From Dehalococcoidia bacterium (GTDB lineage: Bacteria; Chloroflexota; Dehalococcoidia; Lucifugimonadales; UBA3495): 64,000 bases of DNA. Location: assembly GCA_965203835.1 (NCBI GenBank), contig OZ241919.1:596188-660187 (forward strand). Reading direction: 5' to 3'. Below the pieces are notes generated by a model. It was given only the letters and a program-made list of their open reading frames with translations, ran no database searches and was not told the origin of the DNA. Position numbers and translations under genes: made by a program. The stretch's first letter is position 1. Each line of letters opens with the position of its first letter. Positions 1 to 25,865 of this stretch are shown piece after piece.

Positions 1-6
1 ACCAAC

Positions 7-5504: not shown

Positions 5505-5520
5505 CTTCTGATCCTTACCT

Positions 5521-9542: not shown

Positions 9543-10336
9543 AGTGCCGGCTCTCCTTGGTCACGCATAAGATGTTGAAAGCTCACCTCCACTACATCTC
9601 CAGCTGCTCTGTACTCGATCCAGCCCTGACGGGAAGCTATGACCGCCAAGGCTTTTAGTTCGTGAATCGGTGCGTCCAGCATATTAGCCCACAGCGTGGT
9701 GAAGAGGCCCTGACCGCGCTTGCCGCAGAGATCACCCAATAGGAGAGCGTAAGCGAGTGATGTCGGACGGGCACGCGATTTGGATCTTCTCTTTGTTAGC
9801 TGCCCAGACAATAGCCCGGCTTGCTCCCAGGAAGACGCCACATTCCTCCCGAGGCGTTGGCGGGAGCTTGCCACGAATTTCCCGGGGAATTGGTGCTCAG
9901 CTTCCTCCGCAAATTCATGGGGCGTGACCGTTGTGTCCATGGGAAGGCGAAGTACGAACGGAGTCATCGCTCGCAGGATTGGGTCTCTCGCGGTCGAACA
10001 TAGCAGGGCGATCATCGGCTGTGCGCTGCCATCGGCATCCCACAGGTCTTTAAGAGCTCTGAAGATCAGCATGTTGGGGTCCAGCCCATAGAGTTCGCGA
10101 AGCCGCTCGAAGGTGATGCGACGCGCAGAGGCCGTTGGTTTGCCCAACAGGTTTTGATCAACTATAGCGGCCTTGTAAGCATCCTCTGTAGCAGGCGCCG
10201 GGCGGCTGGCTAAGAGAATGCGTAGCTCCTCCAACTTCATGGTGCTACTCAGGTGAGTGCCAGTTGGGTCTATCCTTAGTCCGGAGGTCGAAGCTGATCG
10301 CGGCACTCGTGAATCCATGGTCGTCATAATCCTCAA
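9539..10336 (-). CDS. brxA: BREX protein BrxA (DUF1819-like)
   Basis: First gene of the cluster; size and position fit BrxA. Start is ambiguous: TTG 10336, ATG 10327, or ATG 10318, the last having the best-spaced GAGGA. Confidence 0.65.
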   Translation of the reverse strand: MRIMTTMDSRVPRSASTSGLRIDPTGTHLSSTMKLEELRILLASRPAPATEDAYKAAIVDQNLLGKPTASARRITFERLRELYGLDPNMLIFRALKDLWDADGSAQPMIALLCSTARDPILRAMTPFVLRLPMDTTVTPHEFAEEAEHQFPGKFVASSRQRLGRNVASSWEQAGLLSGQLTKRRSKSRARPTSLAYALLLGDLCGKRGQGLFTTLWANMLDAPIHELKALAVIASRQGWIEYRAAGDVVEVSFQHLMRDQGEPAL

Positions 10337-10361
10337 TATAGCCCTTAAATGGATTTGATGC

Positions 10362-10398
10362 TACAATAGCAGGAGAATTAACTTTAAAGTCTCCTGCT
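10362..10398. promoter_or_regulatory. Divergent brxA / PAPS-reductase control region: TACAAT box plus perfect 9-bp inverted repeat
   Basis: AT-rich 75-bp spacer. TACAAT at 10362-10367. AGCAGGAGA-N13-TCTCCTGCT at 10368-10398, immediately upstream of the AAGGAGG SD of the 10412 gene. Could be an operator or a 5'-UTR hairpin. Confidence 0.35.
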
Positions 10399-10411
10399 AA
10401 GGAGGTATCTA

Positions 10412-11158
10412 ATGTCAATCCGACACGTCCTGAGCTTTGGTGGGGGTGTGAACAGCGTAGCCCTCATGGTCGTCCTACTGCGAGAAGGGCTGCCCTTCGA
10501 TGAGGCGGTGTTCGCTGACACGGGAGGAGAGGTTCCCGAGACGTACCAATACCTGGAGATCGCCAAGCAGTACCTGGCCAATCATGAAATACCCCTCACT
10601 GAAGTATCCAAGCGGGGGCGCTCACTCTATGATACGGCGTGGGACCGTCGGGTATTTCCGTCAGCTATCTGGAGATGGTCTACCAGGGACTTCAAAATTA
10701 CGCCGATTCAACGGCATTACAGGTCGTTGGATGTTCACATCAACCAATACCTAGCTATCGCGTGGGATGAAGTCCATAGAATGAAGGACAGCCGGGTTGA
10801 CTATGTGACCAACCTGTATCCTCTAATTGACCGGCGTCTCACAAGGGCAGACTGTGTAGACATTATCCAGGAGGCTGGACTGCCCATCCCGCAGCGGAGC
10901 TCTTGTTTCTTCTGCCCGTTCAACTCCGTTGACCGGTGGCGCTGGTTATACGAAACCCACCCCGACCTCTTCGATAAGGCCATCGCACTTGAAGAAAACT
11001 CAAAGCACTTCCCCTCTCAGCGGCTCACAGATCAAGCCTTTCGTGAGAGGACTGACATCTCTCTCCGTTCCCTCGCCAAGATATTCGCTGACGGGAGTCC
11101 AATACTGGCTCAAACAGCCATCGAGCAACAGCCATGTGGGGCCGAGTGCGGGACATGA
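10412..11158 (+). CDS. PAPS-reductase / DndC-like PP-loop family protein
   Basis: N-terminal PP-loop block LSFGGGVNSVAL (SGGxDS-like, D replaced by N). C-terminal cysteine pair SSCFFCPF. Strong SD AAGGAGG. No CysH-type ECGLH C-terminus seen. Confidence 0.8.
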   Translation: MSIRHVLSFGGGVNSVALMVVLLREGLPFDEAVFADTGGEVPETYQYLEIAKQYLANHEIPLTEVSKRGRSLYDTAWDRRVFPSAIWRWSTRDFKITPIQRHYRSLDVHINQYLAIAWDEVHRMKDSRVDYVTNLYPLIDRRLTRADCVDIIQEAGLPIPQRSSCFFCPFNSVDRWRWLYETHPDLFDKAIALEENSKHFPSQRLTDQAFRERTDISLRSLAKIFADGSPILAQTAIEQQPCGAECGT

Positions 11159-11378
11159 GCAAATGGAAGCCTTTTTAGAGTCAGATAGTGGAAGCTCGCG
11201 AAGTTCCGCTGGCCCAGCCACGCTGGACTTAGCGCAAACCTCATCCCTCGTATCAGCATCCAAGCTGGAGTCCGTGCGGGTGCCAGTATGAGCACGGAGT
11301 GGATTACCCTCGGCCTTCCGAACCCGACGCGACTGGGTTGCTTTGCTTGAATGCTTCGAGTACGGGTCTCCCGCACAG

Positions 11379-11750
11379 CTATGCCATAGCCTGTATGACT
11401 ACTTCGCCCCCGCTTTCCACTTCAACGTTCAAGCTGTGCCCATCAAGCAACAGCATTCCTACCAGCGGAGTGCTGCCCGTCGCATCGGCTTCGATTTCCC
11501 GCGGCTCGTCATCCCACACGAGCGTAACGTTGTGAACGTTGAACTCCACTTGGTCGTCGTTGGCCAGGAATGCCCGGCCTACGTAAGCGAAAGGCAGCCC
11601 CAACTCGTTCACCAAAGTCGGCGGCAGGGTCAGGAAGCCGGTGTAGCCGGTGTCCACCACGGCCTCGATTTCCTGGGTCCGTCCTTCAGCACTCTGCAAG
11701 GTAAGGGATACTACCGCTTCATATGCGGCGTTCACCACGCCTTGGATCAC
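11379..11750 (-). CDS. Retropepsin-like (clan AA) aspartic protease
   Basis: 123-aa ORF with VVDTGYTGFLTLP (DTG active-site block) at the usual position. GTG start overlaps the upstream stop (GTGA). GGAGGA SD. Confidence 0.75.
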   Translation of the reverse strand: MIQGVVNAAYEAVVSLTLQSAEGRTQEIEAVVDTGYTGFLTLPPTLVNELGLPFAYVGRAFLANDDQVEFNVHNVTLVWDDEPREIEADATGSTPLVGMLLLDGHSLNVEVESGGEVVIQAMA

Positions 11751-12025
11751 CCGGTCCTCCGCAGGGACCCGGCACCGAAGCTGCGCAGCGCCCGGTATCC
11801 CACGCGCTCCATCAACACGTCAACCGCGCCGGGCCGCTGCGTCCGCAATCGCTCCAACGCTTCCTTCGCGCTGTTGGCGATGGCCCAGTCTCCGGTGTCC
11901 ACGTCGATAGCGGCGTACTTTCCAAAGTGACCGTCCTCGACCTTGGGCAGGACGTCGCGCTGGTAGATTTCCTGGCCCAAGCGGGCGATCTCTTCCTTCG
12001 GACGGGTTGGCGCGTTCACTGTCAA
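11747..12025 (-). CDS. Small partner protein of the aspartic protease (DUF5678-like, antitoxin-sized)
   Basis: ~90-aa ORF translationally coupled to the protease gene. Likely start is GTG at 12019, 8 nt after GAGGG. Function not recognisable. Confidence 0.5.
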   Translation of the reverse strand: MTVNAPTRPKEEIARLGQEIYQRDVLPKVEDGHFGKYAAIDVDTGDWAIANSAKEALERLRTQRPGAVDVLMERVGYRALRSFGAGSLRRTG

Positions 12026-12276
12026 AACCCTCGTGTTGGCCGGCTTCCGTGGCTGTCATTTTACACCGCCCGGCGGCCTTCGGACAAACCAAAAGGCCGA
12101 GCCTGCGGGCGTATCCGAGGCGGACCGCTGAATCAGCGGCCCACCCTTGTTCGTGCGTCCTGGCGGCCTGTGCCCACCGTTTCCGGCGGGTATCCCAGGT
12201 CTGCCCGCCCGCTGACTGTGGCTGAGCTTCCTGTCTCCGTTAGCAGGGAGGAGGCTGTTGGAACCGGGAGGCGGCG

Positions 12277-13458
12277 CTAAACGCCCTCCAGTTCACTCCG
12301 CTTCAGCATTGCGGAACAGCCCCGCTCGTCCACGATATGGTTCACCGACACCCGCCCCCGGCTGTCGTAGCCGGTGGTGTAGGCGAATTCCACTTGGGCG
12401 CCCCAGGGCACCCGGCCGCCGGTGCGGATGGTGCCGTCGCCAGGCTTGCCGTTGCTCCTCGGCCCACCGGCGCCCTTGATCACCACGCCCTTGCGGTCGT
12501 CCTTCTTCCAACCCATCACCCTGAGCCCCACCGGCGCCACCAACTCCGCCGCAGACGGCGCGAACAGAACCTGGTGCAGCCGCCGCAGCACGTCCCCCGA
12601 CGGCTTGCGCTGGCCGTTCATGACCAGGGAGAGCATGGCGGAACTGATGCCCGCCCGGCGGGCCGTCTCGTTCTGGCTGATGTCGTGAGCGTCCATGCGC
12701 TTCCACAGCACGCTGGGGTCCACGTCGGAGCACTGGGCGGACTCGACCTTCACCGGAGCCTCCAGCACCACCTCCATCCGGGCCTGGGCGGCGGGACTCA
12801 GACTGCGCTGGCCCCGGGACACCATGACCACGTGGCCGTAGCTCAATCCCGTCCGTTCCGCCACCTGCCGTAGGGTCATGCCCCGCTCCCGGGCCCGCTC
12901 CCGCAGGTAGGTACTCTCGCCGCCCTGGATCACGCTGCCCTGTCGGTTGGCGCACTCGGCGGGGGCGATCTCCACCGGACCGCCCAGCGCCTTCTCGACT
13001 CTGGCCTGGACCGCCGGACTCATGTGCCGCTTGCCCCGGGACACCTCCGACAAGTAGCCGGCGGACACGCCCACCAGGCCGGCCAGGGCCTTCATGTTCA
13101 GGCCCCGCTCCCGGGCGCGTTCCCGCAGGCAGGTGCTTTCGCTCTCTACGAGGTCGCCCTGTCGGTAGACCACGCCCTGCCCGGGCACCTCGCCAAGGAC
13201 CGCCTGCGCCCGTTCCCGCAGCATGGGAGACCAGGGGCGGCGCCCGCTGGCCACCGAGGACAGGTAGCCGTAGCTGACGCTCATCAGGTCAGCCAGTTCC
13301 CTGAGGGTGAGGCCCCTGCGCCGGGCGGCGGCGCGGAGTTCGCTCTCCGGCTTGCCCTGGTTGGGCTCCTGCTCTGCAGCGTTGGCGGAGTTGTAGTTGA
13401 CGTTTTTGACGTTGATCTTTGCCGTAGTGTCGATACCGGTATTGGAATTCGCCTTCAT
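12277..13458 (-). CDS. Transcriptional regulator with four tandem XRE-type HTH domains
   Basis: ORF track gives 12277..13917, but the ATG at 13458 has a GGAGGA SD and the upstream extension is Arg/Pro junk. Four repeats of the pattern RG(L/M)T(L)R..A...G(V/L)S.GY(L/V)S.V.RG.R..SP....R....L. Confidence 0.8.
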   Translation of the reverse strand: MKANSNTGIDTTAKINVKNVNYNSANAAEQEPNQGKPESELRAAARRRGLTLRELADLMSVSYGYLSSVASGRRPWSPMLRERAQAVLGEVPGQGVVYRQGDLVESESTCLRERARERGLNMKALAGLVGVSAGYLSEVSRGKRHMSPAVQARVEKALGGPVEIAPAECANRQGSVIQGGESTYLRERARERGMTLRQVAERTGLSYGHVVMVSRGQRSLSPAAQARMEVVLEAPVKVESAQCSDVDPSVLWKRMDAHDISQNETARRAGISSAMLSLVMNGQRKPSGDVLRRLHQVLFAPSAAELVAPVGLRVMGWKKDDRKGVVIKGAGGPRSNGKPGDGTIRTGGRVPWGAQVEFAYTTGYDSRGRVSVNHIVDERGCSAMLKRSELEGV

Positions 13459-13470
13459 GTCGTTTCCTCC

Positions 13471-13518
13471 AAAACGCAGAAAGCGGGGGCCGTCCTCGTC
13501 GATGAGGACGACCCCCGC
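13471..13518 (-). terminator. GC-rich hairpin with U-rich tail in the leader of the 4xHTH gene (terminator/attenuator candidate)
   Basis: Stem GCGGGGG(CC)GTCCTC / GAGGAC(GA)CCCCCGC at 13483-13518. On the minus strand it is followed by TTTCTGCGTTTT and then the SD. T-rich tails are present on both strands. Confidence 0.5.
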
Positions 13519-13868
13519 TTTGCTGTCAGCTGTTTGTTTTTTCAGTCGTCGGTGGCGTGGATGGCCGCGCCGGCGGCCCCATGGATGAGTGGTGGCGTCC
13601 GCCGTCCGGCGCAAGAGCGCCCAAGGTGGCGCCGGGGTTACGGTTTGTTCATGGGCATTCCTCCGTGGTCGTCGTAGTCGTGGATGTGGTCGTGGTGGCA
13701 GTAGCCGTCGCCGTGGTGGCATCGGCGGTTCACGCGAGGCCGTCCCTGCCGACAATGAGGTGGCGGCGCTGGCTGACCCGGCGCCGGTTTCGTCGTGTCG
13801 CAACTGGCAGAGACGCACGTCACCCCGGGACACAGGCCGGCCCGGAATGACGCGACGAGGAAGGGAAA

Positions 13869-14087
13869 GGGGAGAAAGGGTTGCGCCGTGGGGCAACGCC
13901 GTAACCGGCGATGACAAAGCGCAGAGCGCAACGAAGAGCGCCGCCGTGCCATCGGAGAACGACAGAGGCAGCGGAGAGAGGGAGGTCGGCTAAGCCAGGG
14001 AACGCCGGAGTTCATAGTCCGCGCAAACCCGGCGATGGCAATGAGCGAGGAACGGGGAGAGGGAGGGCTGCGCGGCCGGGGAACGCT
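13869..14087. repeat. Three imperfect direct repeats GGGGAGAG(A/G)GAGGG-N8-12-GGG(G/A)AACGC
   Basis: Copies at 13869-13900, 13971-14006 and 14052-14087, spaced roughly 80-100 bp. They lie in a ~1.2-kb stretch with no convincing ORF. Confidence 0.5.
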
Positions 14088-14739
14088 ATGTCAATGCCGA
14101 CGGCGCAGCAGAGGCACGATACCGGTCTGGCGCTGCCGCAATGCCGGAGCGTGGTATGAATGCCGCGACGTTGCTGTTGTTGAACAGCTACATCGCAGGC
14201 GTGAGGAAGCGGCCGGGGACGGCGATGCCCGTTCCAGCCGCTGAGTGAGGGGTGAGCGCTGTGTCCTGTGCGCTCGGAGAGTGAGTCAGACCGATTGGTT
14301 CAGGTCCTGGGTTGCCGTGTGGTTCTGGTTTTCACCTCCTGGACGATGTTGGCGACGCTGACGACCTGCGCCAGCATGGTGTGATGGTGTCCCGCATCGA
14401 CGTGGGCGCCGGAGGAGCAGGACTCAACCCCGGAGTGCCGCGTCACGCAGCGGGCAGGCGCTTGTCCCTGGTTGAGGCCGCCCGAGGGAGAGCGGGGCTC
14501 GATCCCTGGCGAACGGTCCGGGTCGGGGACGGACCCTCCAGCTTTCTGCGGGAAAACTGGCAAAAACCGTAAACTGCATTGATTATCACCCGCGCTCCCG
14601 CCGCAGGGAACGGTTACAGCGAGCACCTGGCCCGCCCCGACGGTGAATGCTTGCTCTACGCTCGCTGGAGGTTCGCTGGTATGCCGGAAACCTTGCCCGT
14701 CAGCATCGGCCCCGGCTTCGACCAACCACCACCAGCGGT

Positions 14740-15623
14740 CTAATCCCACCACGCCCCCAGGGTGAGGATCCGCCTGATCCAACGCAGCAGCGTGCGTTTC
14801 CTGATGGACACCTGGGTGCGGTACAGCGCCTTCCAGCGCCAGCGGGTGTGGTCCCCCGGGCCAAGCCCTTCACCGGCTGCAGCGCCGGCGGCACGGTCAA
14901 CTCGTGCTCTTCAAACATGGCCAACTCCAACGTCAGCAGCCGCTCCTGGTCCTCCAGCCAGGACAGGCTGCGGCCCCGGACGGGATGCCGGTCCTTGAGC
15001 TTGCGCCACTCCTGCACCAGGGGCCAGGCATCGCCGTAGACCTCCGGGTCGTCCTCGGCGGGTTGGCGGGTTACCATCTCCGGGTCCACGCGACGGCGGC
15101 GTGCCGGCCTGCCCGGTTTCAACCCCGCCACCGGCGGCGCCGTGGGCGTTACCGAGGCCGGGGTGTTTGCGTTGCCGCTTTCGGCCTCCGCCCCAGTCTG
15201 AGCCTCCCCTGTGTTCCCGCCGTCGCCGTCAGCGTCGCCGCGCACAACGTCCCGTCCCCCACCGGCCAACGGAGCCACGGGCAAAACATCGCCGCCCCTT
15301 TCCTCCAGGGCCGCCACACGCTCCGCCAGCCGCTCCACCTCCCCGCGCAGCCGCGCCACTTCAGAATCGCCGCCCGCGCCCAGCAGCAGTTCCAGGGCGT
15401 CGGCCACTCGCCCGGTGACCCGGTCCTCGTCCAGCGCCCGCGCCACGGTCTTGTAGTTCACCCCCAGCAGGGCCGCCGCCTCCATCCGTCCCTGCTGCCG
15501 CTCCAGCTCCCGCAGGAACCCCATCAGCTTGACCTCCCGCAGCCGCTCCACGTCCCCGTCCACGCCACCCGCACCGGCGCCATCCCCCGGCTGCGTCCCG
15601 TCCAACTCGCGCTCATCCATCAT
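14740..15623 (-). CDS. Hypothetical HTH/coiled-coil protein, apparent 1-nt frameshift near 14853-14857
   Basis: ATG at 15623 after GAGGAGG. HTH-like AAALLGVNYKTVARAL. Downstream of a C5 run, high third-position GC moves to another frame, which ends at TAG 14740 (...DHTRWRWKALYRTQVSIRKRTLLRWIRRILTLGAWWD). The uninterrupted ORF runs to 14700 with a low-complexity tail. Confidence 0.6.
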
Positions 15624-15644
15624 TGACCTCCTCGCCTTACCGTC

Positions 15645-15963
15645 CAATAGGGGGCTTGTCCTGTAGGGGGCCTTCCCGCTCCCCAACCAACCCCTTCCCC
15701 CCGATTGCTCTCTCCGATAGGGCTGGACGCTCACTTCCCAAAAGGGAAATGGCCCTGGCGTTTCCGGAACCGGCCCTCACCCCCAAGTGCTCGCCAATAG
15801 GGGATTCCGGCCCGGTTTCTTCCATCGGTTTTGAGTTCAAAAGGGCCGGAAAGTTCCCAAAAGGGAACTGACCCCAATCCCTGTACACGGGTATCACATC
15901 ACATCCGGCCCAATTCCTCCTATTCCCTATAAGGGAGGACGCCGGAGACCCTCCCTGTAGGGA
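15645..15963. promoter_or_regulatory. Motif array in a divergent intergenic region: six (A/G)TAGGG(G) sites plus two TTCCCAAAAGGGAA sites
   Basis: CCAATAGGGGG 15645; CTGTAGGGGG 15661; CCGATAGGG 15714; TTCCCAAAAGGGAA 15735 and 15854; CCAATAGGGGA 15794; CCCTATAAGGGA 15925; CCCTGTAGGGAA 15952. Confidence 0.45.
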
Positions 15964-16073
15964 ATTGGATTCCGCCCCCCGGCTTCCCACACTCGGTTGA
16001 GGGCGAATGCCCCCGGGACCGCCAACCGGCGGTCCCAAAACCCGGACATTCCGACGACATGGAGGCAGAATTT

Positions 16074-18745
16074 ATGAATATCAGCATCAGGAACATCTTC
16101 CTGGGCAACCAGCGGAAGAAGGAGCCGGTCCTGCTGTCCGTCACGCCGCCCCGCGACGGCGAGCGCACGCTTTTGGGCGTGGAGAACCTGCTGGCCTCCA
16201 TCGCCGTCCCCGAACCCTTCTCCCTGGAACTGGCCGGGGACGCCAACGGCGTCAGCCTCCTGGCCCGCTGCCTGGACGACCAGGTGGTGCGGGGGCAGAT
16301 CGCCGCCCGCTACCCCCAGGCCCGCATCACCACCCTTGAACCCGACGACGACCCGTTGCGGTTGCAGGACGGGGAGCAGGCGTGGGGCATGACGCTGCGG
16401 GCGGGAGGCCCGGAATACGCCCCGCTGCGCACCTTCCGGGATGACGACCTGCTGGACGCCGGCTCCGACCCCCTGATCGCCATCATCGGGGCGCTGTCCA
16501 GCCTGAACGACGGGGAGCGGGTGGTGGCCCGGCTGCTGCTGCGGTCCCTGGGACCGGAGTGGTCCCTGGTCCACCAGCAGAAGCTCCAGCGCCAGCAGCA
16601 GACGGGAACCGGCCAGACCGTCACCAACACCCAGGCGACCCAGGCCCAGATCAGCACCAAGGACGGCGTAACCCTGGCCATCCTGGGCGTGGCCGCCCTG
16701 GTGGGACTGCGGGGCTACCTGTGGTACCAGGACGGCGAACTGCTGAAGGCGTCGCTGCTGGGTTTGGGTACGGCCCTGGGGCTGGTTCTGGCCGGCTGGG
16801 GCTGGTGGCGCTGGAGACAGGCCCGCAGCCGGGTCTACGACCCCTTGATGATCAAGGAGAAGACCTCCCGCATCGCCTTCGACGGCGAGATCCAGCTCAC
16901 GGCCATCCTGCCCGAAAGCGCCGGTCCCGACCGGGCCAACGAACTGCTGGGGCCGGTGTCCGCCGCCTACCGCACTACGACAATCCCGCCGGGGCCAGGT
17001 TCCGGGTGGGCAAGGTCAAGCCCGCGTTGCCCGGCGCCCACCTGCACCCGGCCGGGCCGGGGCTGTTCGGGAGGCGCAGCGTCCTGGGGGTGAGAGAGGC
17101 CGCCGGCCTGTGGCACCCGCCGGGAGCCAGGGACGAGACGCCCCTGGTGGCCCGCGCCGGGTCCAGGGCGCTCTTGCCCTCGGCACGGGGCACCAGCGGC
17201 GGCGCCCTGGTGGGCGAGACCACCACCGGCCCGGCCAGGAAGATCCACTTTCCCCAGGACCTGCTGCGCCGCCACCACCTCTACGTGGCCCGCACCCGCA
17301 TGGGCAAGTCCACCCTGATGGAGCACGTCATCGCCCACAAGCTGAGGGAGAAGGCGGCGGGCAACGACCACGACGCCATCATCGTCGTGGACCCCCACGC
17401 CGACCTGGTGGGCAGCGTGCTGGGGCAGGTGCCCGAGAGCCTGGTCGAACAGGTGAAGCTCATCGACCTGGCCGACAAGCGGGGCTTTCCCGGCATCAAC
17501 CTGCTGGACACCCGCATCTTCGCCGACCGGGACCGCACCGCCGACTCGGTGGTGCGGGTGGCCCACGGCCTGTGGGAGCAGTGGGAACCGAGGATGCAGT
17601 CCATCCTGGAGCACGCGGTCAAGAGCCTGCACGAGGCCAACGGGAAGCGGACGCCGGAAAGCCAGTACACCATCATCGACGGACTGAGGCTGCTGGGCGA
17701 CGACGACTTCCGGGACGAGGTGATGGCCCAGGTGGACGACCACCACCTGCTCAGGTGGTGGGCAAGGGAGTTCGGGACCTGGCGCAAGGACTACCAGGGC
17801 ATGGCCCTGGCCCCGGTGCAGACCCGCCTGGCCTACTACGCATCGTCCAGGACGGCCCGGGCCATCCTGGGCCAAGCCCGCTCCAGCATCGACCTGCGGG
17901 AGACCATCCAGGGTGGCGGCATCCTGCTGGTGTCTACCGCCCAAGGCGCCGTGGGCCGGGACGTGGCGGCCCTGGTGGGCTCCTCCATCCTGAACCTGGT
18001 GGACGGGGTGATCCGGGAGCAGGGCAGCCTGCCGCCGGAGCAGCGGCGGGGCGCATTGGTCGTCGTGGACGAGATGCAGACCATGCCTGGCGTGGACTAC
18101 GAGTCCATGCTCAGTGAGCTGGGCAAGTTCGGGGCCAACTTCATCCTGGCCACCCAGAGCCTGGCCAAGCTGGAGGACCTGTCCCGCACCATGCGCGACA
18201 CCGTGCTGGCCAACGTGGGCTGCCTGGCCGCCTTCCAGATGGCGGGTACCGACGCGCGGCAGTTGGTGTGGGAGCTGGGCAAGGAACGGGTCAGCGAGGA
18301 CGACGTCACCTCCCTGGACGTGCACCAGTGCTACGTGCGGGCAACCGTGGGCGTCGAGCGCATGGACGCCTTCTCCATGCGGGTGCTGCCGCCGGAGCCG
18401 GGTGACCCGCAGGTGGCACAGCGCATCCGGGACCTGGCCCTAGGCTACCTGACGCCCGTGGACGATATCGGCCCCCAGGACGACGAGATGGGCAAGCTGG
18501 TGGAGAAGTACCGCCAGGAACTGGCGGAACTCCGGCAGGGACCGCGCCGCCGGAAGGAGAACCAGGCCAGCCCTCCGGCCCAGCCCAAGGCCAACAACCG
18601 GCGCAACCAGCGCAGCCGGCGGCAGGGGCACCCCGCACCAGGAACGGAGGCAGAGGCGGAAGGGGAGCAGGATAACGAGGAAGGGAGCGACGGTTGGGAA
18701 GAGGGCAGCGGTGAGCCGGACGGCGAGGGGGAGGGGGAGGAATGA
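16074..18745 (+). pseudogene. TraD/VirD4-like type IV coupling ATPase, interrupted by an apparent 1-nt frameshift at ~16971-16975
   Basis: ORFs 16059..17093 and 16559..18745 join into one sensible protein (...VSAAYR|HYDNPAGARFRVGKV...). Two N-terminal TM helices, Walker A ARTRMGKST, Walker B ALVVVDEMQ. GGAGG SD before the ATG at 16074. Could be a sequencing error rather than true decay. Confidence 0.75.
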
Positions 18746-20436
18746 CGCGGACGATGAACCGGAGCCAGGGAGAGCTGCTGCGCCTTCTGGCCCGGATGCC
18801 CTTCCTGGACCGGCTGGAAATGGCTGCCCTGGCCGGGCGGTCCAGGGGCGGGGTCTACGAGGCGGCTGACCGTCTGGAGGACGCCGGACTCGCCGCCTCC
18901 GTGCCCCACGGCACGCCCCTGCTGGCCTCCACCCGCCGGTACTACCTCACCGAAAAATGCGTGAACGCGCTGGGCCAGGAGGAGGTCCAGCCAGTGGCAA
19001 GCCTGCTACGCGAATATCCGCTGTCGCTGCGCTGGCGCCGCGTGCTGCTGGAACGGCTGGACACCGCCGCCGTCATCTACCGCCTGGCCTCCGCCCTGGC
19101 CGGCCTGGGCCACCCCGCCGGCTTCCGCTGGCACCGGGCGCTGCCCCAGGACGCAACCGTAATGCTCCCCGGTGATCGCGTCCTTGCCATCGTGCGGCAG
19201 GGTTCGACCGCCGAGCGCGCCGGTTTCGCCAAGCGCCTCTGGCGGCTGGCCCAGGGTCCCCGGCCAGGGGCTTACTTGGTAATGGTCCCCGATGAGGTGC
19301 GGCTGCGCCAGGCCCGCGAACTGCTGCGCGGCGTCCGCGCCCCGGCATCCTCGGCCCCGGCCCTCTTCGCGCTGGAGCGCCACGTCGCGGCGGCCGGCGG
19401 GGACGATCCGGTATGGCGGTCACTCTCGTCGGGCGCCGGCATATCCCTCGCCGAGGCCGTGGCCCGCGCCAATCCCGGCGGCGTGATGGCGACCGAGCCG
19501 CCCCTGCAACGGGTCTCACTACCCAGGGACATCGACACCGGGGAACTGGACGGGGGCGACGGGGGCGAAGGCGTCCCCGGCCACCTGCTGCCGGTCCTGT
19601 TGCGGTCCGCCGAAAAGCGCGCCCTGGACCTGCTGGCCGACTGGCCTTGGCTGGCGCGGCAGGATCTGGCCGGGCTGCTGAACGTTTCCAACTCCGGGGC
19701 GTCCCACCTCACCGGCGCCCTGGCACGCTTTGGGTTGGTGGCCGCCGTCCAGCGCGACAGCCGCCGCCTGGCCCTCACGGATAGGGGGCTGAAACTGCTG
19801 GCCCGCCGGGACCGCGTTTCCACCGGCGAGGCCCGGCAGCGCTGGAGCGTCAGCACTGACGACGGCGAGGACGACGGCAACCGGCCAACCGTATCCGGCC
19901 GGCGCAGCCGCCAACTGCTCCGGGACCTGGAGCACACCGCCGCCGTCCACCGCTTCATCGCCGCCCTGAACCGCCAAGCCCAGGGTCTCGGCTGGAATAT
20001 CGAGCAACTGGACCCGCCCCACCGGGCCTCCCGCTACTTCCGCCACTACGGCGGCCCCCTTTCCCTGCATCCCGACGCCTTCGGAACGTTGCGCCGCAAT
20101 GACCTGCTGCGTTCCTTCTTCCTGGAGTACGAACGCCGCGCCGTGCGCCCCGCCACCATGGCCCAGCGCCTGGCTCCCTACCTGCGCTACTACTCCTCCC
20201 ACCGGCCCGCCGACGACCATGGCCAGAGGCCCCTGGTCCTGGTGGTCTTCGATGATCCCGTCGCACCCACCCATTTCCTGGAGGTGGCACGGAGGGAGAT
20301 GGAGCGCGTTCGCGTGCCGCTGCCTCTGCTGGTTTCCCACCGGGAACTGCTGCAACGGGAGGGGCCGCTGGGTTCCGCCTGGCTGGCGCCGGACGGCGAT
20401 TTCCGGCCGGTTCAACCTCTGCACCGCTACCAGTGA
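18742..20436 (+). CDS. Replication-relaxation (Replic_Relax) family protein
   Basis: 564-aa ORF whose start overlaps the T4CP stop (ATGA). wHTH-like N-terminal repeats. C-terminal block HTAAVHRF...LHPDAFG...FFLEYERRA is typical of the family. Confidence 0.7.
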   Translation: MTRTMNRSQGELLRLLARMPFLDRLEMAALAGRSRGGVYEAADRLEDAGLAASVPHGTPLLASTRRYYLTEKCVNALGQEEVQPVASLLREYPLSLRWRRVLLERLDTAAVIYRLASALAGLGHPAGFRWHRALPQDATVMLPGDRVLAIVRQGSTAERAGFAKRLWRLAQGPRPGAYLVMVPDEVRLRQARELLRGVRAPASSAPALFALERHVAAAGGDDPVWRSLSSGAGISLAEAVARANPGGVMATEPPLQRVSLPRDIDTGELDGGDGGEGVPGHLLPVLLRSAEKRALDLLADWPWLARQDLAGLLNVSNSGASHLTGALARFGLVAAVQRDSRRLALTDRGLKLLARRDRVSTGEARQRWSVSTDDGEDDGNRPTVSGRRSRQLLRDLEHTAAVHRFIAALNRQAQGLGWNIEQLDPPHRASRYFRHYGGPLSLHPDAFGTLRRNDLLRSFFLEYERRAVRPATMAQRLAPYLRYYSSHRPADDHGQRPLVLVVFDDPVAPTHFLEVARREMERVRVPLPLLVSHRELLQREGPLGSAWLAPDGDFRPVQPLHRYQ

Positions 20437-20517
20437 AACGCCAACGGGGCCGGACGGTTTATTCCGTCCGGCCCCGTCATATTCGGGAAACTCCTTGCGC
20501 CCTGGTCAGTCCTGGAC

Positions 20518-20829
20518 TTACGTGTGCGCGGCGCTGGCCTCGCTTTCGGCATCCAAGTCAGTATCAACCTCCGGCTCTCCCGCCTCGGGCAGCAGGTGGT
20601 GGAGCAGCCCCAGCCGGGCGGCCAGGGCGAACAGCGACACGAGGTGGCCGGAGCCGACCCGGGAGCCGGCCTTCCAGCGCCTCACCGTTTCGGCATTGAC
20701 CCGCAGTTCCCGGGCCAGGCCCCGCCAGCTAAACCCGGCGGCCTGCCGGAAGCGGTCCATCCGGTCGGAAAAGTCCGCCGGGAACTCCTGGGGCTCCGTG
20801 TGGTAGACGTACTGCTGACGGCTTCCCAT
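20518..20829 (-). CDS. Small HTH protein (paralog family 1 of 3 genes)
   Basis: Block AGFSWRGLARELRVNAETVRRWKAGSRVGSG is shared with the 20833 and 21332 ORFs. Confidence 0.6.
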   Translation of the reverse strand: MGSRQQYVYHTEPQEFPADFSDRMDRFRQAAGFSWRGLARELRVNAETVRRWKAGSRVGSGHLVSLFALAARLGLLHHLLPEAGEPEVDTDLDAESEASAAHT

Positions 20830-20832
20830 CCT

Positions 20833-21360
20833 TCACCTCCGGTATGGCCAGGGTTCGTCGGAGTCCCGCAGCAGCACCTCGACGCCGCCCCGCACCGTGC
20901 AAGCCCACTCCAGGATGGCCCGCATTTCGGCGGCGGTGGGCACGTCGTAAAAGCGCAGCCGGTTGGCCCGCTCCAGGGGCAGACCCCACCGGCGGGTGAA
21001 GTCCTCCATGGACACGCCGGTGCGGTCCTCCAACCGCCCCAGCCGCACCCACCAGTCCTCGGGCAGGGGCGGCGGCGGATAGCCCTTGCTCAGGCTGGGC
21101 TCGTAGTTGTCGTTGTCGAAAGTCATGGGCGATTCCTCCTTGGTTTTCTTGGGGCGGTTCTGCGCGAGGTTCCCAGCGACGGCATCCCGGTTGGAGCCAG
21201 GGCCGGATAAACCGGCGCGGTGATTGACGCCGATGCGGGCCGCCAACCCCCGCCAGGTCAGGCCGCACTTTTCCTGCAAACGCTCCAGCCCTCCACCGAC
21301 GCGCTCCGCCGGCAATGGGGAAAAGGCGTCGTCAATAGGCGATCTTCCTTCCTTGGTCAT
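20833..21360 (-). CDS. Double-module HTH protein (paralog family)
   Basis: N-terminal module CGLTWRGLAARIGVNHR and C-terminal module TGVSMEDFTRRWGLPLERANRL. An internal in-frame ATG at 21126 has a strong AAGGAGGAA SD, so a shorter 97-aa product is also possible. Confidence 0.55.
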   Translation of the reverse strand: MTKEGRSPIDDAFSPLPAERVGGGLERLQEKCGLTWRGLAARIGVNHRAGLSGPGSNRDAVAGNLAQNRPKKTKEESPMTFDNDNYEPSLSKGYPPPPLPEDWWVRLGRLEDRTGVSMEDFTRRWGLPLERANRLRFYDVPTAAEMRAILEWACTVRGGVEVLLRDSDEPWPYRR

Positions 21361-21664
21361 GGTTCCACCTCCCAGGTTGATGGATTACGATCACGTCCTC
21401 GTCCGTAAGCAGAGCCAGGCCACCGGGCACCCACAGGGCCAGGCGCACCAGGGCCAGCATGGCGCCCCCGTTGGGCTGCACCCCGTGCCGCCGCCAGCGC
21501 CACAGCTGGCGGCTGTCCACCCCAATGGCCGCCGCCATCCCCTCCCACGAGAGGCCGGTCGGGCGCTTGATGGCCTCCAGCTTCTCCCGGAAGTCCTCCG
21601 GCAGCAGGGCCACGCCCGGCGGTATCACAATGGGCGTCTTCATATTCGCGGGGGAGCTACTCAT
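21332..21664 (-). CDS. Small HTH protein (paralog family)
   Basis: Block TGLSWEGMAAAIGVDSRQLWRWRRHGVQPNG. Overlaps both neighbouring genes, giving compact operon packing. Confidence 0.6.
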   Translation of the reverse strand: MSSSPANMKTPIVIPPGVALLPEDFREKLEAIKRPTGLSWEGMAAAIGVDSRQLWRWRRHGVQPNGGAMLALVRLALWVPGGLALLTDEDVIVIHQPGRWNHDQGRKIAY

Positions 21665-21899
21665 CGACCCGCTCCAGGACGAAGAGAACGTTGAAGTCGG
21701 TGACGCCCAGGGCGTCCATCAGGCGCTGGCGCACCCCGGGCGAGGCGAAGCGCTCTCCGCTCATCAGCTGGGACATGTAGCCCGACCTGATGCCGGCCCG
21801 GCGCGCCAGCTCGTTCTGGCTCATGTTGAGCCGGTTCAGCAGCTCCCACACCACCTCGGTGCGCAGCCTGGACCTGAAACAGGGCTTCCTGCGTTTCAT
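21657..21899 (-). CDS. XRE-family HTH protein
   Basis: 80-aa ORF with NMSQNELARRAGIRSGYMSQLMSGER. AAGGAGG SD. ATGA overlap with the upstream ORF. Confidence 0.75.
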   Translation of the reverse strand: MKRRKPCFRSRLRTEVVWELLNRLNMSQNELARRAGIRSGYMSQLMSGERFASPGVRQRLMDALGVTDFNVLFVLERVDE

Positions 21900-22168
21900 T
21901 CGGCTGCCTCCTTGTGGGAAAGGTCTCCATCGGCCCGCGCGACGGCGTTGACCATGGCATCGTCCTTGCCGACGTCCCCACTTCCGCCGTCGATGGTGCC
22001 GGTAGGAACGGGGTACAGTTCGGGGTGGGCCAGGTAGTGGCGGACGATGACGCGGGCCAGAGCCCGCAGGCCATCCATCCTCTGTCGCTCCTGCTCACCG
22101 GTAAGTCTTGGCCTGGTACTCAAGGGAAACGTCTCTCCGTTGCCGCCGCATATCATTTCCCGTGTCAT
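21896..22168 (-). CDS. Hypothetical protein, first gene of the leftward HTH operon
   Basis: ORF 21896..22327. The start is unclear (ATG 22168, 22156 or 22078); third-position GC is only high from about MDGLRALARVIV onward. Confidence 0.4.
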   Translation of the reverse strand: MTREMICGGNGETFPLSTRPRLTGEQERQRMDGLRALARVIVRHYLAHPELYPVPTGTIDGGSGDVGKDDAMVNAVARADGDLSHKEAAE

Positions 22169-22298
22169 CCGGGGATTGGCCGGGGACCGGCCGGTGGGGT
22201 ATACTGGGCAGCAATTACGATTGGATGTTCTACTTGCTAGAGTGTAACAATCAGCAAACCAGATAGACAAGGACTCACTGCCACTAACGCACTGTTTC

Positions 22299-22328
22299 TT
22301 GACTGATTGCTCGCTGTGATGTAACAAT
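22299..22328 (+). promoter_or_regulatory. Sigma70-like promoter candidate for the XRE/ImmA operon
   Basis: TTGACT at 22299-22304, 18-nt spacer, AACAAT at 22323-22328. Lies in the only AT-rich patch of the element. Confidence 0.4.
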
Positions 22329-22332
22329 AATG

Positions 22333-22354
22333 CGACAAGAATCCGACAAGAATC
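22333..22354. repeat. Perfect 11-bp tandem direct repeat CGACAAGAATC x2 (operator candidate)
   Basis: Located just downstream of the candidate -10. In addition, the 9-bp TGTAACAAT occurs twice, at 22243 and 22320. Confidence 0.5.
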
Positions 22355-22409
22355 TGACTATTATCCCGTAGACTGGGAGCAGCAGACTGCGGGAAAGGAG
22401 GGAAGCATC

Positions 22410-22847
22410 ATGGGCGAGCCTGACCAACACCAGTCTGGCCCAACCGATGGGGAGGCAGAACTGTACGGCAACGAGGAGATCGGCCCCCTACTGAGAAGGC
22501 TCAGGAGACCCCTCAGCCTGAGAGACGTGAACCGCCGCACCGGGGTCTCCGGCTCCTACCTCTCCCAGATCGAAAACGGAGAGCGCAAGCCCGGGGCCAA
22601 CATCGTGCGCAAGCTGGCCGCCCTCTACCGGGTGGACCCCGACGAACTCCTGAAGCGGGCCGGCCACGGCCCCAGGCCCGACCCCCACGGCGACGAGACC
22701 CTGGAGGTGGAGCGGGCCTACCGCTACGTGCTGGACGACCCCAACTTCAGGGTGGGAACCCGGCCCGACGGCCCCCTGTCCCTGAACGCCAAGCGGTTCA
22801 TCGTGGAGATGTACGAGAAACTAACCGGCAAGAGGCTTTTGGAATGA
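22410..22847 (+). CDS. XRE-family transcriptional regulator
   Basis: HTH LSLRDVNRRTGVSGSYLSQIENGERKP. SD AAAGGAGGGAAG. Stop overlaps the start of the downstream ImmA-like gene. Confidence 0.85.
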   Translation: MGEPDQHQSGPTDGEAELYGNEEIGPLLRRLRRPLSLRDVNRRTGVSGSYLSQIENGERKPGANIVRKLAALYRVDPDELLKRAGHGPRPDPHGDETLEVERAYRYVLDDPNFRVGTRPDGPLSLNAKRFIVEMYEKLTGKRLLE

Positions 22848-23782
22848 ACGAAACCCTGGGCGGCTTCTGCCGCGACCTGCTGGATGAACACCATTGTTGC
22901 CCAGGCCAGGAACCCAGCCTGGAGGCCGTCGCCGCCCGCTTCGTGGAACGCTTCGGTGTGTCAGCCCGGCCTAACCTGGAGGAACTCAAGGCCCTGCTGC
23001 GCGACGCCGGTTTCGGGGAGGTGGTGGAGATGAGCATGGAGGGCAGTCCCAAGGGACTGCACGTGGGGATCGCGGGGCAGGAGTGCCACATCTACTACAA
23101 GGAAGAGTTGTGGCAGGGCGCCAGGGACTACACCGTGCTCCATGAGAGCTACGAGATCATGCACGAGACCCTGTGCGACCTGGCCACGGGAACCAAGGCG
23201 GAGCAGGAGGTGTGCCGGGAGGCGAACCGCTTCGCGGCGGGTGTGCTGATGCAGCCGGGGGAGTTCCGGGAGTTGGCCCTGGCGTTGGGACTGGACGTGA
23301 TCGCCCTGCAACGGGAGTACCGCTACGCCTACGCTGCCGTGACCATGAGACTCACCGAGGTGGTGCGCAACTTCCCCTACTCCGTGGTCCTCTACGAGCG
23401 TCCGGGCCGCACCGACCCGGCGATGTGGCCCAGGGGAGACGACCTGGCCGCGCTGCGGGCCACGGTGGTCCGGCGGACCAAGGGCATGGGGCCTCCCGCC
23501 TCCAAGCTCATCACCGGAAAGCGGGGCGGCATTCCCCAGAGGTACAAGCGGGTGCCCGCCGGGTCCCTGGCGGAGCGGGCGGCCCGCACGGGCGAGCCGG
23601 AGTACGCTGAGGCCGACGGTCTGGCCGTGGTCGCCAGGTCCGTCCGCTGGAAGGGGCGTCTGGCCAAGCTGGCGGTGGTGGCCGTGCCATTGGAGTTCCG
23701 GGCGGTGCTGGCCCCGCAGTTGGGCCGGCGGAGGCAGACCCGTCCCTTGACCAACCCCAGGGCGCTGACCGCCACGTCTTGA
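22844..23782 (+). CDS. ImmA/IrrE (M78)-like metallopeptidase domain protein
   Basis: Classic XRE + ImmA gene pair. Downstream family block EANRFAAGVLMQP is present. The zinc motif is non-canonical: LHESYEIMHE instead of HEXXH. Confidence 0.7.
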   Translation: MNETLGGFCRDLLDEHHCCPGQEPSLEAVAARFVERFGVSARPNLEELKALLRDAGFGEVVEMSMEGSPKGLHVGIAGQECHIYYKEELWQGARDYTVLHESYEIMHETLCDLATGTKAEQEVCREANRFAAGVLMQPGEFRELALALGLDVIALQREYRYAYAAVTMRLTEVVRNFPYSVVLYERPGRTDPAMWPRGDDLAALRATVVRRTKGMGPPASKLITGKRGGIPQRYKRVPAGSLAERAARTGEPEYAEADGLAVVARSVRWKGRLAKLAVVAVPLEFRAVLAPQLGRRRQTRPLTNPRALTATS

Positions 23783-23852
23783 CCGATGGGGCCGGATGCC
23801 GGATAATAATAGTAAGACAAACACTTATCCCACGAGGCAAAAAAAGGGGACT

Positions 23853-24083
23853 ATGCCGCCACGCCGCAAATCCAGGACCATCACCTTCTCGCTGCCGCCG
23901 GAGATGTACCAGGAGGTGCAGCGGGTCAAGGAAGAAGAGGGCCGCGACATGAGCGAGCTGGTGCGGGAAGCCCTGCGTTTGTACATGGAAGACCGGGAAC
24001 TGCGCCGTGAGCAGCGCCTGGAACGGCTGCGTTCCCGGCAGGCTGTACCGGAGACAAATGAACGAGGTGAGAGCAATGAGTAG
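23853..24083 (+). CDS. Ribbon-helix-helix (CopG-like) protein
   Basis: MPPRRKSRTITFSLPPEMYQEVQRVKEEEGRDMSELVREALRLYM matches an RHH beta-alpha-alpha pattern. Overlaps the recombinase start by 8 nt. Confidence 0.7.
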   Translation: MPPRRKSRTITFSLPPEMYQEVQRVKEEEGRDMSELVREALRLYMEDRELRREQRLERLRSRQAVPETNERGESNE

Positions 24084-25716
24084 GAATACCGACCTGGCCC
24101 CGGTGGCCCTGTACGCCCGGGTGTCCAGCGACCGCCAGGACGTGGACCTGTCCGTGGCCGCCCAGCTTCGGGCCTTGCGAGACTACGCCGACAAGAACGG
24201 CTACCTGGTGGTCCGCGAGTTTGTCGACGAAGCCGAGAGCGGGCGCATAGCCGATAGGCCCCAGTTCCGCAAGATGCTGGACGAGGCCGGCAAGCCGGAG
24301 GCCCCTTTTAGCGAGATTTTGGTCTGGAAATTCTCTCGCTTCACCCGCAAGCGGGAACACGCCGTGGCTTTCAAGTCCATGCTCCGGCGCAAGGGCATCC
24401 GCGTCGTGTCCATCACCGAGCACGCCGACGACACCCCCACCGGCAAGCTCATGGAGGCCATCATCGAGTCCGTGGATGAATTTTACTCGGAAAATTTAGC
24501 TCAAGAAGTGACGCGGGGAATGCGGGAAGCCGCCTCCCGGGGCTTTTGGATGAACGCCAGCGCCCCCTACGGCTACCGGCGGGTCTACGTCCAGGACGGG
24601 GCCAAGAAGCGGCCCCGGCTGGAACTCAACCCGCCCCACGACGCCGTGGTCCGCCGCATCTTCGACCTCACCCTCCAGGGCCGGACCTCCCTGGACATCC
24701 TCAAGACCCTGAACGCCGAGGGCATCCCCTCCCCCAAGGGCAGGCAGTGGCGCAAGACGACCGTTCACAAGGTGCTGACCAACGAAGCCTACACGGGCAG
24801 CCTTGTATGGGGCCAGAAGGCCAGGGACGGACAGGAGCCGGTTCGCGTGGAGAACGCCTTCCCCGCCATCGTGTCAGCGGACGAGTTCGACCGGGCCAGG
24901 AGGCTGTTGGAGTCGCGGGCGCCCAAGGTGACCCACCCCCGCCGCGCCGCCAATCCCTACCTGCTCAGTGGGTTGGCCAAGTGCGAGTCCTGCAACAAAG
25001 CCCTCACCGCCGCCGAGGCCAAGAGCGGCAAGTACACCTACTACGTCTGCCAGTCTTTGCTCAAGCAGGGCAGCGGGTCCTGCGACACCCCCAGGCTGAA
25101 CGCCAAGAACTTCGAGGGCATCATCGTCTCCAACATCCGTGAGAACATTCTCACCGAGTCCAACGTCCGCGACCTGGTGCGGCTGGTGGACGAGGAGATG
25201 GACGGCATCGCCCGTGAACAGCGGCAGAACCTGGAAACCATCGAGGCCGAACTGGAAGAGGTGAAGCGGAAGCTGGACCGCATCTGGCACTTCGTCGAGA
25301 GCACCGACCTGGACATGGCCGACGCCTCGGAGCGCATCCTGGAACACCGCCACCGGCGGGAGCAACTGGAAGCCGCCGCCGAGGAAGCGCGGGCTGTGCT
25401 GTCCCAGCGGCGGGAATTGCTGGACAGCGCCGACGTAATCGCCGCCTTCGCCCGAGACATGAGCGAGTTTCTCAAGACCAGCGAACTCACCGAGACCAAA
25501 GCCTTCGTGCGGTCCTTCGTGAAGGAGGTGCTGGTGCGGCCCGGCGGGGCGACGATTATCTACACGATCCCCACGCCGGAAGATAGTCCCATAGGGGGCA
25601 AGGACGCTGCTGAAATCGCCTTGGATGGCGGAGTTCGCAGTAATAGATACGGTGGTGGAGGTGAGGGGAATCGAACCCCTGGCCCCCTGCGTGCAAAGCA
25701 GGTGCTCTCCCGCTGA
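24076..25716 (+). CDS. Large serine recombinase (integrase)
   Basis: Catalytic block ALYARVSSDRQ. Recombinase domain. Zinc-ribbon cysteines CESC...YYVC...GSC. Coiled-coil C-terminal region. GAGGTGA SD. The ORF stops 64 nt inside tRNA-Ala. Confidence 0.9.
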   Translation: MSRNTDLAPVALYARVSSDRQDVDLSVAAQLRALRDYADKNGYLVVREFVDEAESGRIADRPQFRKMLDEAGKPEAPFSEILVWKFSRFTRKREHAVAFKSMLRRKGIRVVSITEHADDTPTGKLMEAIIESVDEFYSENLAQEVTRGMREAASRGFWMNASAPYGYRRVYVQDGAKKRPRLELNPPHDAVVRRIFDLTLQGRTSLDILKTLNAEGIPSPKGRQWRKTTVHKVLTNEAYTGSLVWGQKARDGQEPVRVENAFPAIVSADEFDRARRLLESRAPKVTHPRRAANPYLLSGLAKCESCNKALTAAEAKSGKYTYYVCQSLLKQGSGSCDTPRLNAKNFEGIIVSNIRENILTESNVRDLVRLVDEEMDGIAREQRQNLETIEAELEEVKRKLDRIWHFVESTDLDMADASERILEHRHRREQLEAAAEEARAVLSQRRELLDSADVIAAFARDMSEFLKTSELTETKAFVRSFVKEVLVRPGGATIIYTIPTPEDSPIGGKDAAEIALDGGVRSNRYGGGGEGNRTPGPLRAKQVLSR

Positions 25717-25727
25717 GCTACACCCCC
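25653..25727 (-). tRNA. tRNA-Ala (anticodon UGC), CCA encoded
   Basis: Hand-folded cloverleaf. Acceptor GGGGGTG/CACCTCC with the G3:U70 alanine identity pair. Anticodon loop TTTGCAC. T-arm AGGGG-TTCGATT-CCCCT. 3' ACCA. Confidence 0.92.
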
Positions 25728-25865
25728 ATGGTCTACATCAATTATACCGGATAGCCGCGGGATACGGCATTGGTACTGACGGGAGTTCTTCCGATAGCTC
25801 CGTAGTGCGCAGGGGTATCCTGTGATGAGTAAGGCGGCCTTATGTCGCCAGGGGCTGGTTTTTTG

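Follow-up and report, generated by a model that had tools for sequence, protein, structure and literature searches.

How does the reading frame of a large serine recombinase come to end inside a tRNA gene, and what does such an overlap say about the element that encodes the enzyme? The question is raised by a window of 64,000 nt (the whole stretch of DNA analysed here) within the 4.6-Mb single-contig genome of a Dehalococcoidia bacterium, where a recombinase gene runs into a convergent tRNA-Ala(UGC) gene. Coordinates refer to this window unless marked as genome positions. The locus is very probably the attR junction of an integrative element of about 36 kb, whose serine integrase would carry an attP site straddling the end of its own gene, use the end of a tRNA gene as attB and have its C-terminal tail swapped upon integration. 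The overlap is a real and recurrent design of a clade of serine integrases targeting tRNA ends.

The junction and its attachment sites

The features on which the argument is built are the following:

24076..25716, plus strand: large serine recombinase gene in its integrated form, 546 aa, with ATG at 24076 and TGA at 25714-25716
25653..25727, minus strand: intact tRNA-Ala(UGC) gene (ARAGORN), CCA encoded at 25653-25655; putative B' half of attR
25630..25658, plus strand: P arm of attP/attR, GGAGTTCGCAGTAATAGATACGGTGGTGG, made up of 27 nt from the end of the coding sequence carried by the element, together with the core
25655..25658: common core GTGG (tRNA C74, A73, C72 and C71), where the end of the P arm overlaps the start of the P' arm; the crossover dinucleotide would lie inside it
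25659..25676, plus strand: putative B' half-site, which covers the acceptor and T arms in antisense and includes TCGAAC of the T-loop (25671-25676)

The window holds this single tRNA gene (ARAGORN), which the recombinase open reading frame (ORF) overlaps by 64 nt in antisense. The first-pass annotation had located this overlap exactly: the stop codon at 25714-25716 lies 64 nt inside the convergent gene, whose CCA end is at 25653. Translation of the ORF ends in ...GGGGEGNRTPGPLRAKQVLSR / ...SNRYGGGGEGNRTPGPLRAKQVLSR; its residues 529-546 derive from the tRNA read in antisense, and residues 1-528 are alike in the integrated and excised states. By its domain content the protein is a large serine recombinase, the catalytic domain, the Recombinase domain and a zinc ribbon with coiled coil all being present. 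The Pfam matches are Resolvase (PF00239, 3e-33, residues 10-156, with the motif YARVSSDRQ), Recombinase (PF07508, 1e-23) and Zn_ribbon_recom (PF13408, 2e-10). Matches in the PDB include resolvase-type catalytic domains, SPbeta SprA/YokA and the TP901-1 integrase, the alignment with SPbeta SprA extending over residues 52-409. A homologue in the intact-attP form was modelled with AlphaFold2 using 44 sequences (mean predicted local distance difference test score, pLDDT, of 62.9, below 50 from residue 507), and the model displays long helices at residues 361-450, at low confidence.

The end of the element is delimited by other copies of the enzyme in the same genome. Five close copies agree at their 3' ends up to ...GGAGTTCGCAGTAATAGATACGGTGGTGG, with at most six mismatches, and part right after ...GGTGGTGG, each then running into its own tRNA; the element side therefore ends at 25658. 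A truncated recombinase copy at genome 4.558 Mb continues with GCCTAAAGGGGCCATACTGCGAACTTTTCGGTGGGAGG, where the P-arm motif GTTCGCA recurs in reverse complement, and provides an intact P-core-P' site. The P' arm is present in eight copies in the 4.6-Mb genome, alike for about 42 nt from GTGGGCC onwards and unrelated beyond. One of these, GTGGGCCTAAGTGTACCGTATTGCGAACTTTTCGGTGGGAGG (attL), lies in plus orientation at genome 585524, which is 36.3 kb left of the tRNA-Ala junction and 10,664 nt left of window position 1; a second is found 38 kb from the tRNA-Ala(GGC) junction, again in matching orientation. Window positions 1..25658 would represent the right 25.7 kb of an integrative element of about 36.3 kb with its left end at genome 585524.

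GTGG alone is common to the attL and attR of this element. The attP is quasi-palindromic (GTTCGCA-N36-TGCGAAC) and centred on the GG at 25657-25658. The crossover presumably spans 2 bp and is favoured at this GG by the symmetry of the site and by covariation at tRNA positions 71-72. The predicted excision joint reads ...GATACGGTG-GTGG-GCCTAAGTG..., and the predicted junctions are ...GTAATAGATACGGTG-GTGG-GCCTAAGTGTACCGTATTGCGAAC... for attP and ...CAACTACGGCAGAAA-GTGG-AGGTGAGGGGAATCGAACC... for attB.

The proposed reaction can be summarized as follows. The P half-site would consist of the last ~27 nt of conserved coding sequence, with the crossover within GTGG and the stop codon past the crossover, in the P' half-site. 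The attB would be the extreme 3' end of a tRNA gene, crossed at positions 71-74 beside ACCA. Integration would leave the tRNA intact, the element adding at most its last 2-4 nt, and the integrase ORF would then run antisense into the tRNA up to a chance stop, trading its conserved tail of 15 residues (PKCTVLRTFRWEVSM) for 18 arbitrary ones. Members of the enzyme family use many different tRNAs.

Two alternatives had been offered by the first-pass annotation, and each survives in part. The placing of attP in the 3' end of the recombinase gene is retained, but the replacement tRNA 3' segment that the element was to supply shrinks to the last 2-4 nt of the tRNA at most (A73-A76). The second alternative, a C-terminal tail differing between the integrated and excised states, likewise agrees with the present reading, but the junction that it put just left of 25653 is placed here at 25655-25658, 2-5 nt to the right; the built-in state sensor that it saw in this tail would be a hypothetical role.

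The arrangement recurs within the genome, which carries four close paralogues of the recombinase and some fragments. The paralogues at genome 4.42 Mb (94% identity), 4.49 Mb (95% identity) and 2.40 Mb (62% identity) end inside the convergent genes of tRNA-Ala(GGC), tRNA-Lys(UUU) and tRNA-Ile(GAU), respectively. It also recurs among 80 homologous loci of other genomes, at 71-95% identity to the window recombinase: a convergent tRNA 3' end is located 1577 or 1580 nt from the start codon in 49 of them, in the register of the window copy. TGGT (complement of ACCA) and TCGAAC (complement of the T-loop GTTCGA) are invariant in the 49 aligned recombinase/tRNA junctions, every target having A73 and the ACCA end. 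The targets comprise 13 anticodons: Ala(UGC, GGC, CGC), Ile(GAU), Met(CAU), Lys(UUU), Arg(CCU, UCG), Val(UAC, GAC, CAC), Leu(UAG) and Glu(CUC). More distant homologues (45-68% identity) came from a phylum-wide sample, in which small closed genomes of Dehalococcoidia and two genomes outside this class were represented. Of the nine that were fetched, eight adjoin a convergent tRNA; those at 45-49% identity in the small closed Dehalococcoidia genomes also do so. The overlap is not due to chance, because the same register recurs in 49/80 loci, in 8/9 of these homologues and in three further copies of the genome itself. An overlap in relatives devoid of any island, or a junction far from the tRNA, had been named beforehand as a sign that the annotation was mistaken; neither was encountered, the island being present and the junction lying at the tRNA.

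A different arrangement is displayed by ten tRNA-less loci (L039, L060, L066, L082, L091-L093, L104, L106 and L108), where the integrase stands tail to tail with a second large serine recombinase, 56-57% identical. In the genome under study, a close paralogue of the integrase is paired in this way at 2,497,603-2,500,733; the right half of the att site of this paralogue corresponds to the partner gene's 3' end in reverse complement (GGACTGGACAAAATCAAGAACC). Arms of this type are also located after tRNA-Met at genome 1,562,196 and after tRNA-Ala(UGC) in a genome of the same genus, with no recombinase nearby. A simple attP x attP product was considered as the origin of the tail-to-tail pairs, but the core orientation does not fit such an exchange.

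Predicted exchange of the C-terminal tail

The element encodes residues 1-527 of the recombinase, and position 528 is occupied by Gly whether the element is integrated or excised. Beyond Gly528, the integrated form has GEGNRTPGPLRAKQVLSR, 18 residues of antisense tRNA. When the P arm is joined in silico to the P' arm at genome 585524, the resulting excised-form enzyme ends in ...GGPKCTVLRTFRWEVSM, with the tail PKCTVLRTFRWEVSM followed by a stop. The same holds more widely in the genome, six of the eight P' arms having a stop 15-16 codons past G528 and encoding tails such as GPKGAILRTFRWEVAL.

The conservation of this tail was evaluated on 79 P' arms of related type from other Dehalococcoidia genomes, entropy being calculated over codons not fixed by the search pattern. 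A stop at codon 18 or 19 is found in 59 arms, and the stops are TGA (52), TAG (8) and TAA (7). Two tail length classes are present, which differ by a 3-nt indel that keeps the frame. Mean entropy amounts to 0.30-0.43 at the second codon position, 0.67-0.89 at the first and 0.96-0.97 at the third, and leaps to ~1.7 right after the stop. Conservation reaches about 55 nt from the centre, compared with a usual half-site of ~25 bp, and the consensus of the tail reads GGP(K/I)(L/W)T(V/I)(D/G)RT(I/V)FE(M/L)W(L/M)G.L. Lowest entropy at the second position, followed by the first and the third, and the collapse of conservation after the stop are the signature of a translated peptide. As deduced from these arms, the excised-form enzyme has a conserved tail which integration would remove, 15 residues being lost and 18 residues of antisense tRNA gained in the case of the window enzyme.

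Whether the exchange matters to the enzyme is a separate issue. It may well be, with somewhat less than an even chance, that the anatomy is as described and the exchange a neutral by-product: the coding sequence would have no stop before the crossover and neither tail would be functional. McMurdie et al. held this neutral view for DsiB, a serine recombinase of Dehalococcoides mccartyi for which divergent C-termini were reported (PMC3146451). In keeping with it, the integrated-form tail is set by the tRNA and varies between targets, the last ~40 residues are modelled by AlphaFold at very low confidence, and the P' arm needs conservation anyway as a putative binding site. The behaviour of the 79 arms argues in the opposite direction, as a conservation over ~55 nt, a coding-type entropy, a frame kept over a 3-nt indel, interchanged TGA, TAG and TAA stops and a collapse right after the stop are all observed together.

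A more far-reaching proposal, which we put forward tentatively and consider rather doubtful, is that the tail encoded across attP is a working part of directionality or stability control (needed for integration, for example, or acting as a degron that limits the free form), and that the clade reads features common to tRNAs, namely the ACCA end, a crossover at 71-72 and the T-loop GTTCGA, read at the spacing typical of attB. The physical state of the element would then set the activity of the enzyme, without or together with the ribbon-helix-helix (RHH) protein encoded upstream, and nearly identical enzymes could land on many tRNAs. A role in directionality may belong to the tail or to the RHH protein.

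Extent and content of the element

The element is organized in the order attL, variable cargo, conserved backbone, integrase, attR and tRNA. Its features other than the junction are listed below:

genome 592,805-594,042: insertion sequence (IS; helix-turn-helix (HTH) and DDE ORFs) inside the cargo, with at least four other copies in the genome at 99.7-100% identity
7..11158, minus strand: type-1 bacteriophage exclusion (BREX) cargo, pglZ, pglX, brxC, brxB and brxA (PADLOC, 2e-66 to 0)
10412-11158, plus strand: SspD/PAPS-reductase-like gene of the cargo (PADLOC)
12274..25658, plus strand: conserved backbone of high GC content (65-73%; blastn and composition)
12277-13917, minus strand: at the backbone's left edge, protein of 546 aa whose long N-terminus is of low complexity and which has four XRE-type HTH domains in tandem
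16059..20436, plus strand: transfer module, TraD/TrwB-like coupling ATPase (TrwB_AAD_bind, 2e-7) followed by a Replic_Relax protein (Replic_Relax, 2e-8)
22410..23782, plus strand: control module, XRE-type HTH gene (HTH_31, 1e-13) and then an ImmA/IrrE-like (M78) gene (Peptidase_M78 at 5e-4, which misses the Pfam cut-off)
23796..24083, plus strand: RHH (CopG-like) gene overlapping the start of the recombinase gene (PF01402, 1.6e-7)

Window positions 12,274-25,732 are common to the element inserted at tRNA-Ala(GGC), with 87-89% identity in blastn. The DNA between backbone and P' arm differs between the two elements, the P' arm of the paralogous element being located 17 kb past the backbone. The backbone also encodes small HTH genes. 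The element is probably mobilizable; the gene of its coupling ATPase occupies two ORFs that overlap (16059-17093 and 16559-18745) and is probably frameshifted, and the window copy may be unable to transfer. In most integrase copies of 16 genomes, the gene immediately upstream is the RHH gene, whose product is a candidate regulator or directionality factor. In the cargo, the type-1 BREX system is completed by brxL, just left of the window (genome 594,138-596,177), and a type-IV-restriction-like HNH gene is present further left.

A smaller island, restricted to the 13.6-kb block of high GC content (~12,000-25,658), would mean that the P' arm found 10.7 kb beyond the left border of the window belongs to something different. 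GC content indeed climbs from ~58% to ~68% near 12,000, but no P'-like arm or att-like sequence was found there, and the paralogous element also has variable cargo between its backbone and a P' arm in the right orientation. With eight arms in 4.6 Mb, we estimate that two would be correctly placed by chance about once in 1000, and the smaller island is accordingly improbable. Still less credible is a crossover deep in the tRNA, the element bringing a replacement tRNA 3' segment as tyrosine-integrase islands do. The attP does imitate the end of a tRNA over a short stretch (TGGTGGGCC or TGGTACCCC), but the paralogous copies part immediately past GGTGGTGG, and the whole tRNA from position 70 inward therefore belongs to the target. 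Moreover, the window contains no long direct repeat and no informative direct repeats, no repeat of the tRNA 3' end when up to 3 mismatches are allowed, and no second copy of any tRNA-Ala segment of at least 20 nt; the far end of the element carries no duplicated part of the tRNA either. Finally, stop codons are scarce in GC-rich antisense tRNA sequence, but chance, an annotation artefact or delivery of the element to the tRNA by another recombinase can be practically dismissed, as the in-register recurrence at 13 tRNA species speaks against an artefact and no tyrosine recombinase lies between genome positions 585 and 622 kb. A tyrosine integrase was considered specifically as the agent and rejected: the genome has eight matches to PF00589, none of them at genome 585-622 kb and hence none within the element.

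A number of observations weigh against the interpretation of the locus as the attR of an element whose serine integrase swaps its tail at a tRNA end. Neither an empty attB nor a circular attP was observed. The empty tRNA-Ala site by which the first-pass annotation proposed to define the att sites was sought in three genomes of the same genus; the tRNA and its right flank are kept there (83-96%), but the downstream DNA differs in each and no empty site was found. The orthologue of the left flank is 53-695 kb distant in the same-genus genomes, the sole match of the G003 flank is a paralogue elsewhere in the genome under study, and a metagenome scan for the rebuilt attB gave no match. The flank of the candidate attL reads ...AGAAA followed by GTGG; the rebuilt attB would therefore be devoid of the CA of CCA, that is, a CCA-less tRNA gene with a T-rich trailer. 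CCA is encoded by 50 of the 54 tRNA genes in the genome, and CCA-less genes are rare (4/54). The crossover dinucleotide may be GT (25655-25656) or GG, and the AlphaFold model, with its pLDDT below 50 from residue 507, carries no information on the tail. Lastly, with a frameshifted-looking coupling-protein gene and an IS in the cargo, the window copy may no longer move.

The CCA-less tRNA genes, such as tRNA-Val(UAC) at genome 376,815 and tRNA-Thr(UGU) at genome 851,768, continue with 'C' and a T-rich trailer, resembling the attB rebuilt for three attL sites; the missing CA would come from the P arm of the element on integration. In the genomes with an element at tRNA-Arg, described below, two of the five attL-like arms starting with GTACC are likewise without TG. 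A further peculiarity is displayed by 12 of the 79 P' arms (L115, L118, L138, L139, L145, L146, L156, L171, L173, L175, L184 and L186), where GTTCRA is found in the left flank exactly 9 nt before GGTGGGCC, a mirror image of the tRNA T-loop at attB-type spacing. ARAGORN detects no tRNA there, and the motif could belong to a symmetric attB-type half-site or to a tRNA-like remnant. At genome 2,738,182-2,738,965, an orphan P' arm is situated ~400 bp downstream of the gene of a tyrosine recombinase, with tRNA-Ser(CGA) 1.6 kb away, a setting suggestive of different kinds of element that were stacked or have decayed at a single site.

Known systems and proposed target recognition

The closest published precedent, and the only report of this layout that our search retrieved, is DsiB, the ~540-aa serine recombinase of the ssrA islands of D. 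mccartyi. Its gene invariably extends at the 3' end over the att site and reaches a stop codon only beyond the island, in ssrA or a neighbouring island; McMurdie et al. 2011 judged this overlap non-functional (PMC3146451). By description, the two systems share the bacterial class, a large serine recombinase of ~540 aa, the position of the gene 3' end over att, the stop outside the island, a tRNA-like RNA target and tandem arrays. They differ in target, since DsiB uses a single tmRNA gene with a 20-bp direct repeat whereas the window element belongs with many true tRNA genes and a shared core of 4-9 bp. They also differ in content: DsiA (a small serine recombinase), RecF-like, ParB and Mom proteins and an embedded tRNA-like locus characterize the DsiB islands and are absent from the window element, which has RHH, XRE/ImmA, type IV coupling protein and Replic_Relax genes. 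The excised-form tail of the window clade, moreover, is conserved as a peptide, unlike the DsiB case as described.

Canonical serine integrases (phiC31, Bxb1, A118/LI, TP901-1 and SPbeta SprA) resemble the present enzyme in their domain set, a short quasi-palindromic attP and the absence of long junction repeats; a non-palindromic central dinucleotide is a likely further resemblance, together with an outer motif that is nearer the centre in attB than in attP. They use one target, usually in a protein-coding gene or intergenic, with attP outside the int coding sequence, whereas attP covers the int stop region in the window clade and the targets are many tRNA ends. Tyrosine-integrase islands at tRNA genes are similar in occupying the 3' side of the tRNA, leaving it intact and carrying defence cargo, but their enzyme is unrelated and 15-50+ nt of the tRNA are duplicated, compared with 4-9 nt at most shared by the window element. 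Attachment sites inside an element gene are known from SSV1, whose tyrosine integrase gene is split on entering a tRNA gene, and from mycobacteriophage BPs, where integration by a tyrosine integrase truncates the repressor and removes its C-terminal degradation tag. As in these two cases, attP lies in an element gene and integration alters its product; the window enzyme differs in being of the serine type, with only the last 15-18 codons exchanged.

In textbooks and databases, tRNA genes are treated as targets of tyrosine integrases only (PMC4383910), in agreement with the initial remark that serine integrases rarely target tRNA genes, and, according to a review of integrative mobilizable elements, serine recombinases have their sites within protein-coding genes (PMC5704250). 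Our literature search retrieved no description of tRNA-targeting serine integrases for Chloroflexota; both tRNA targets and a conserved swappable tail appear to be undescribed. Insertion of large DNA relies mainly on serine integrases as tools, and enzymes directed to tRNA ends fill a gap in knowledge. A large diversified clade acting on at least 13 tRNA species would constitute a natural enzyme set for near-universal landing sites, and a gene rewired by its own reaction offers a simple case for an integrase sensing the integrated versus the excised state. The clade also helps explain the spread of BREX-type defence islands in Dehalococcoidia and the frequent tRNA-flanked plasticity regions.

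As for the recognition of the target, the GTTCGC/GCGAAC motifs of attP are located 18 nt from the central dinucleotide. The distance is 12 nt for the universal T-loop TCGAAC in the half of attB that the tRNA provides, and this motif is thus nearer the centre by about 6 bp. TCGAAC in the B' half-site is a candidate recognition motif, and the enzyme may read the T-loop GTTCGA ~6 bp nearer the centre than the GTTCGC motifs of attP. Such a spacing resembles that of the LI/A118 integrase, for which the zinc-ribbon motif is shifted by ~5 bp between attB and attP. In three genomes with the element at tRNA-Arg(CCU), with the junction TGGTACCCC, five of the nine aligned P' arms begin with GTACC (four GTACCCC and one GTACCGC) in place of GTGGGCC; the attP thus holds a 9-bp mimic of the target end, which covaries with the target. 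Nearly identical enzymes with GGGCC arms sit at Ala, Lys and Ile tRNA genes, so the specificity is loose. Judged from the arms compared, retargeting in this clade seems to proceed by a change of 5 nt in attP.

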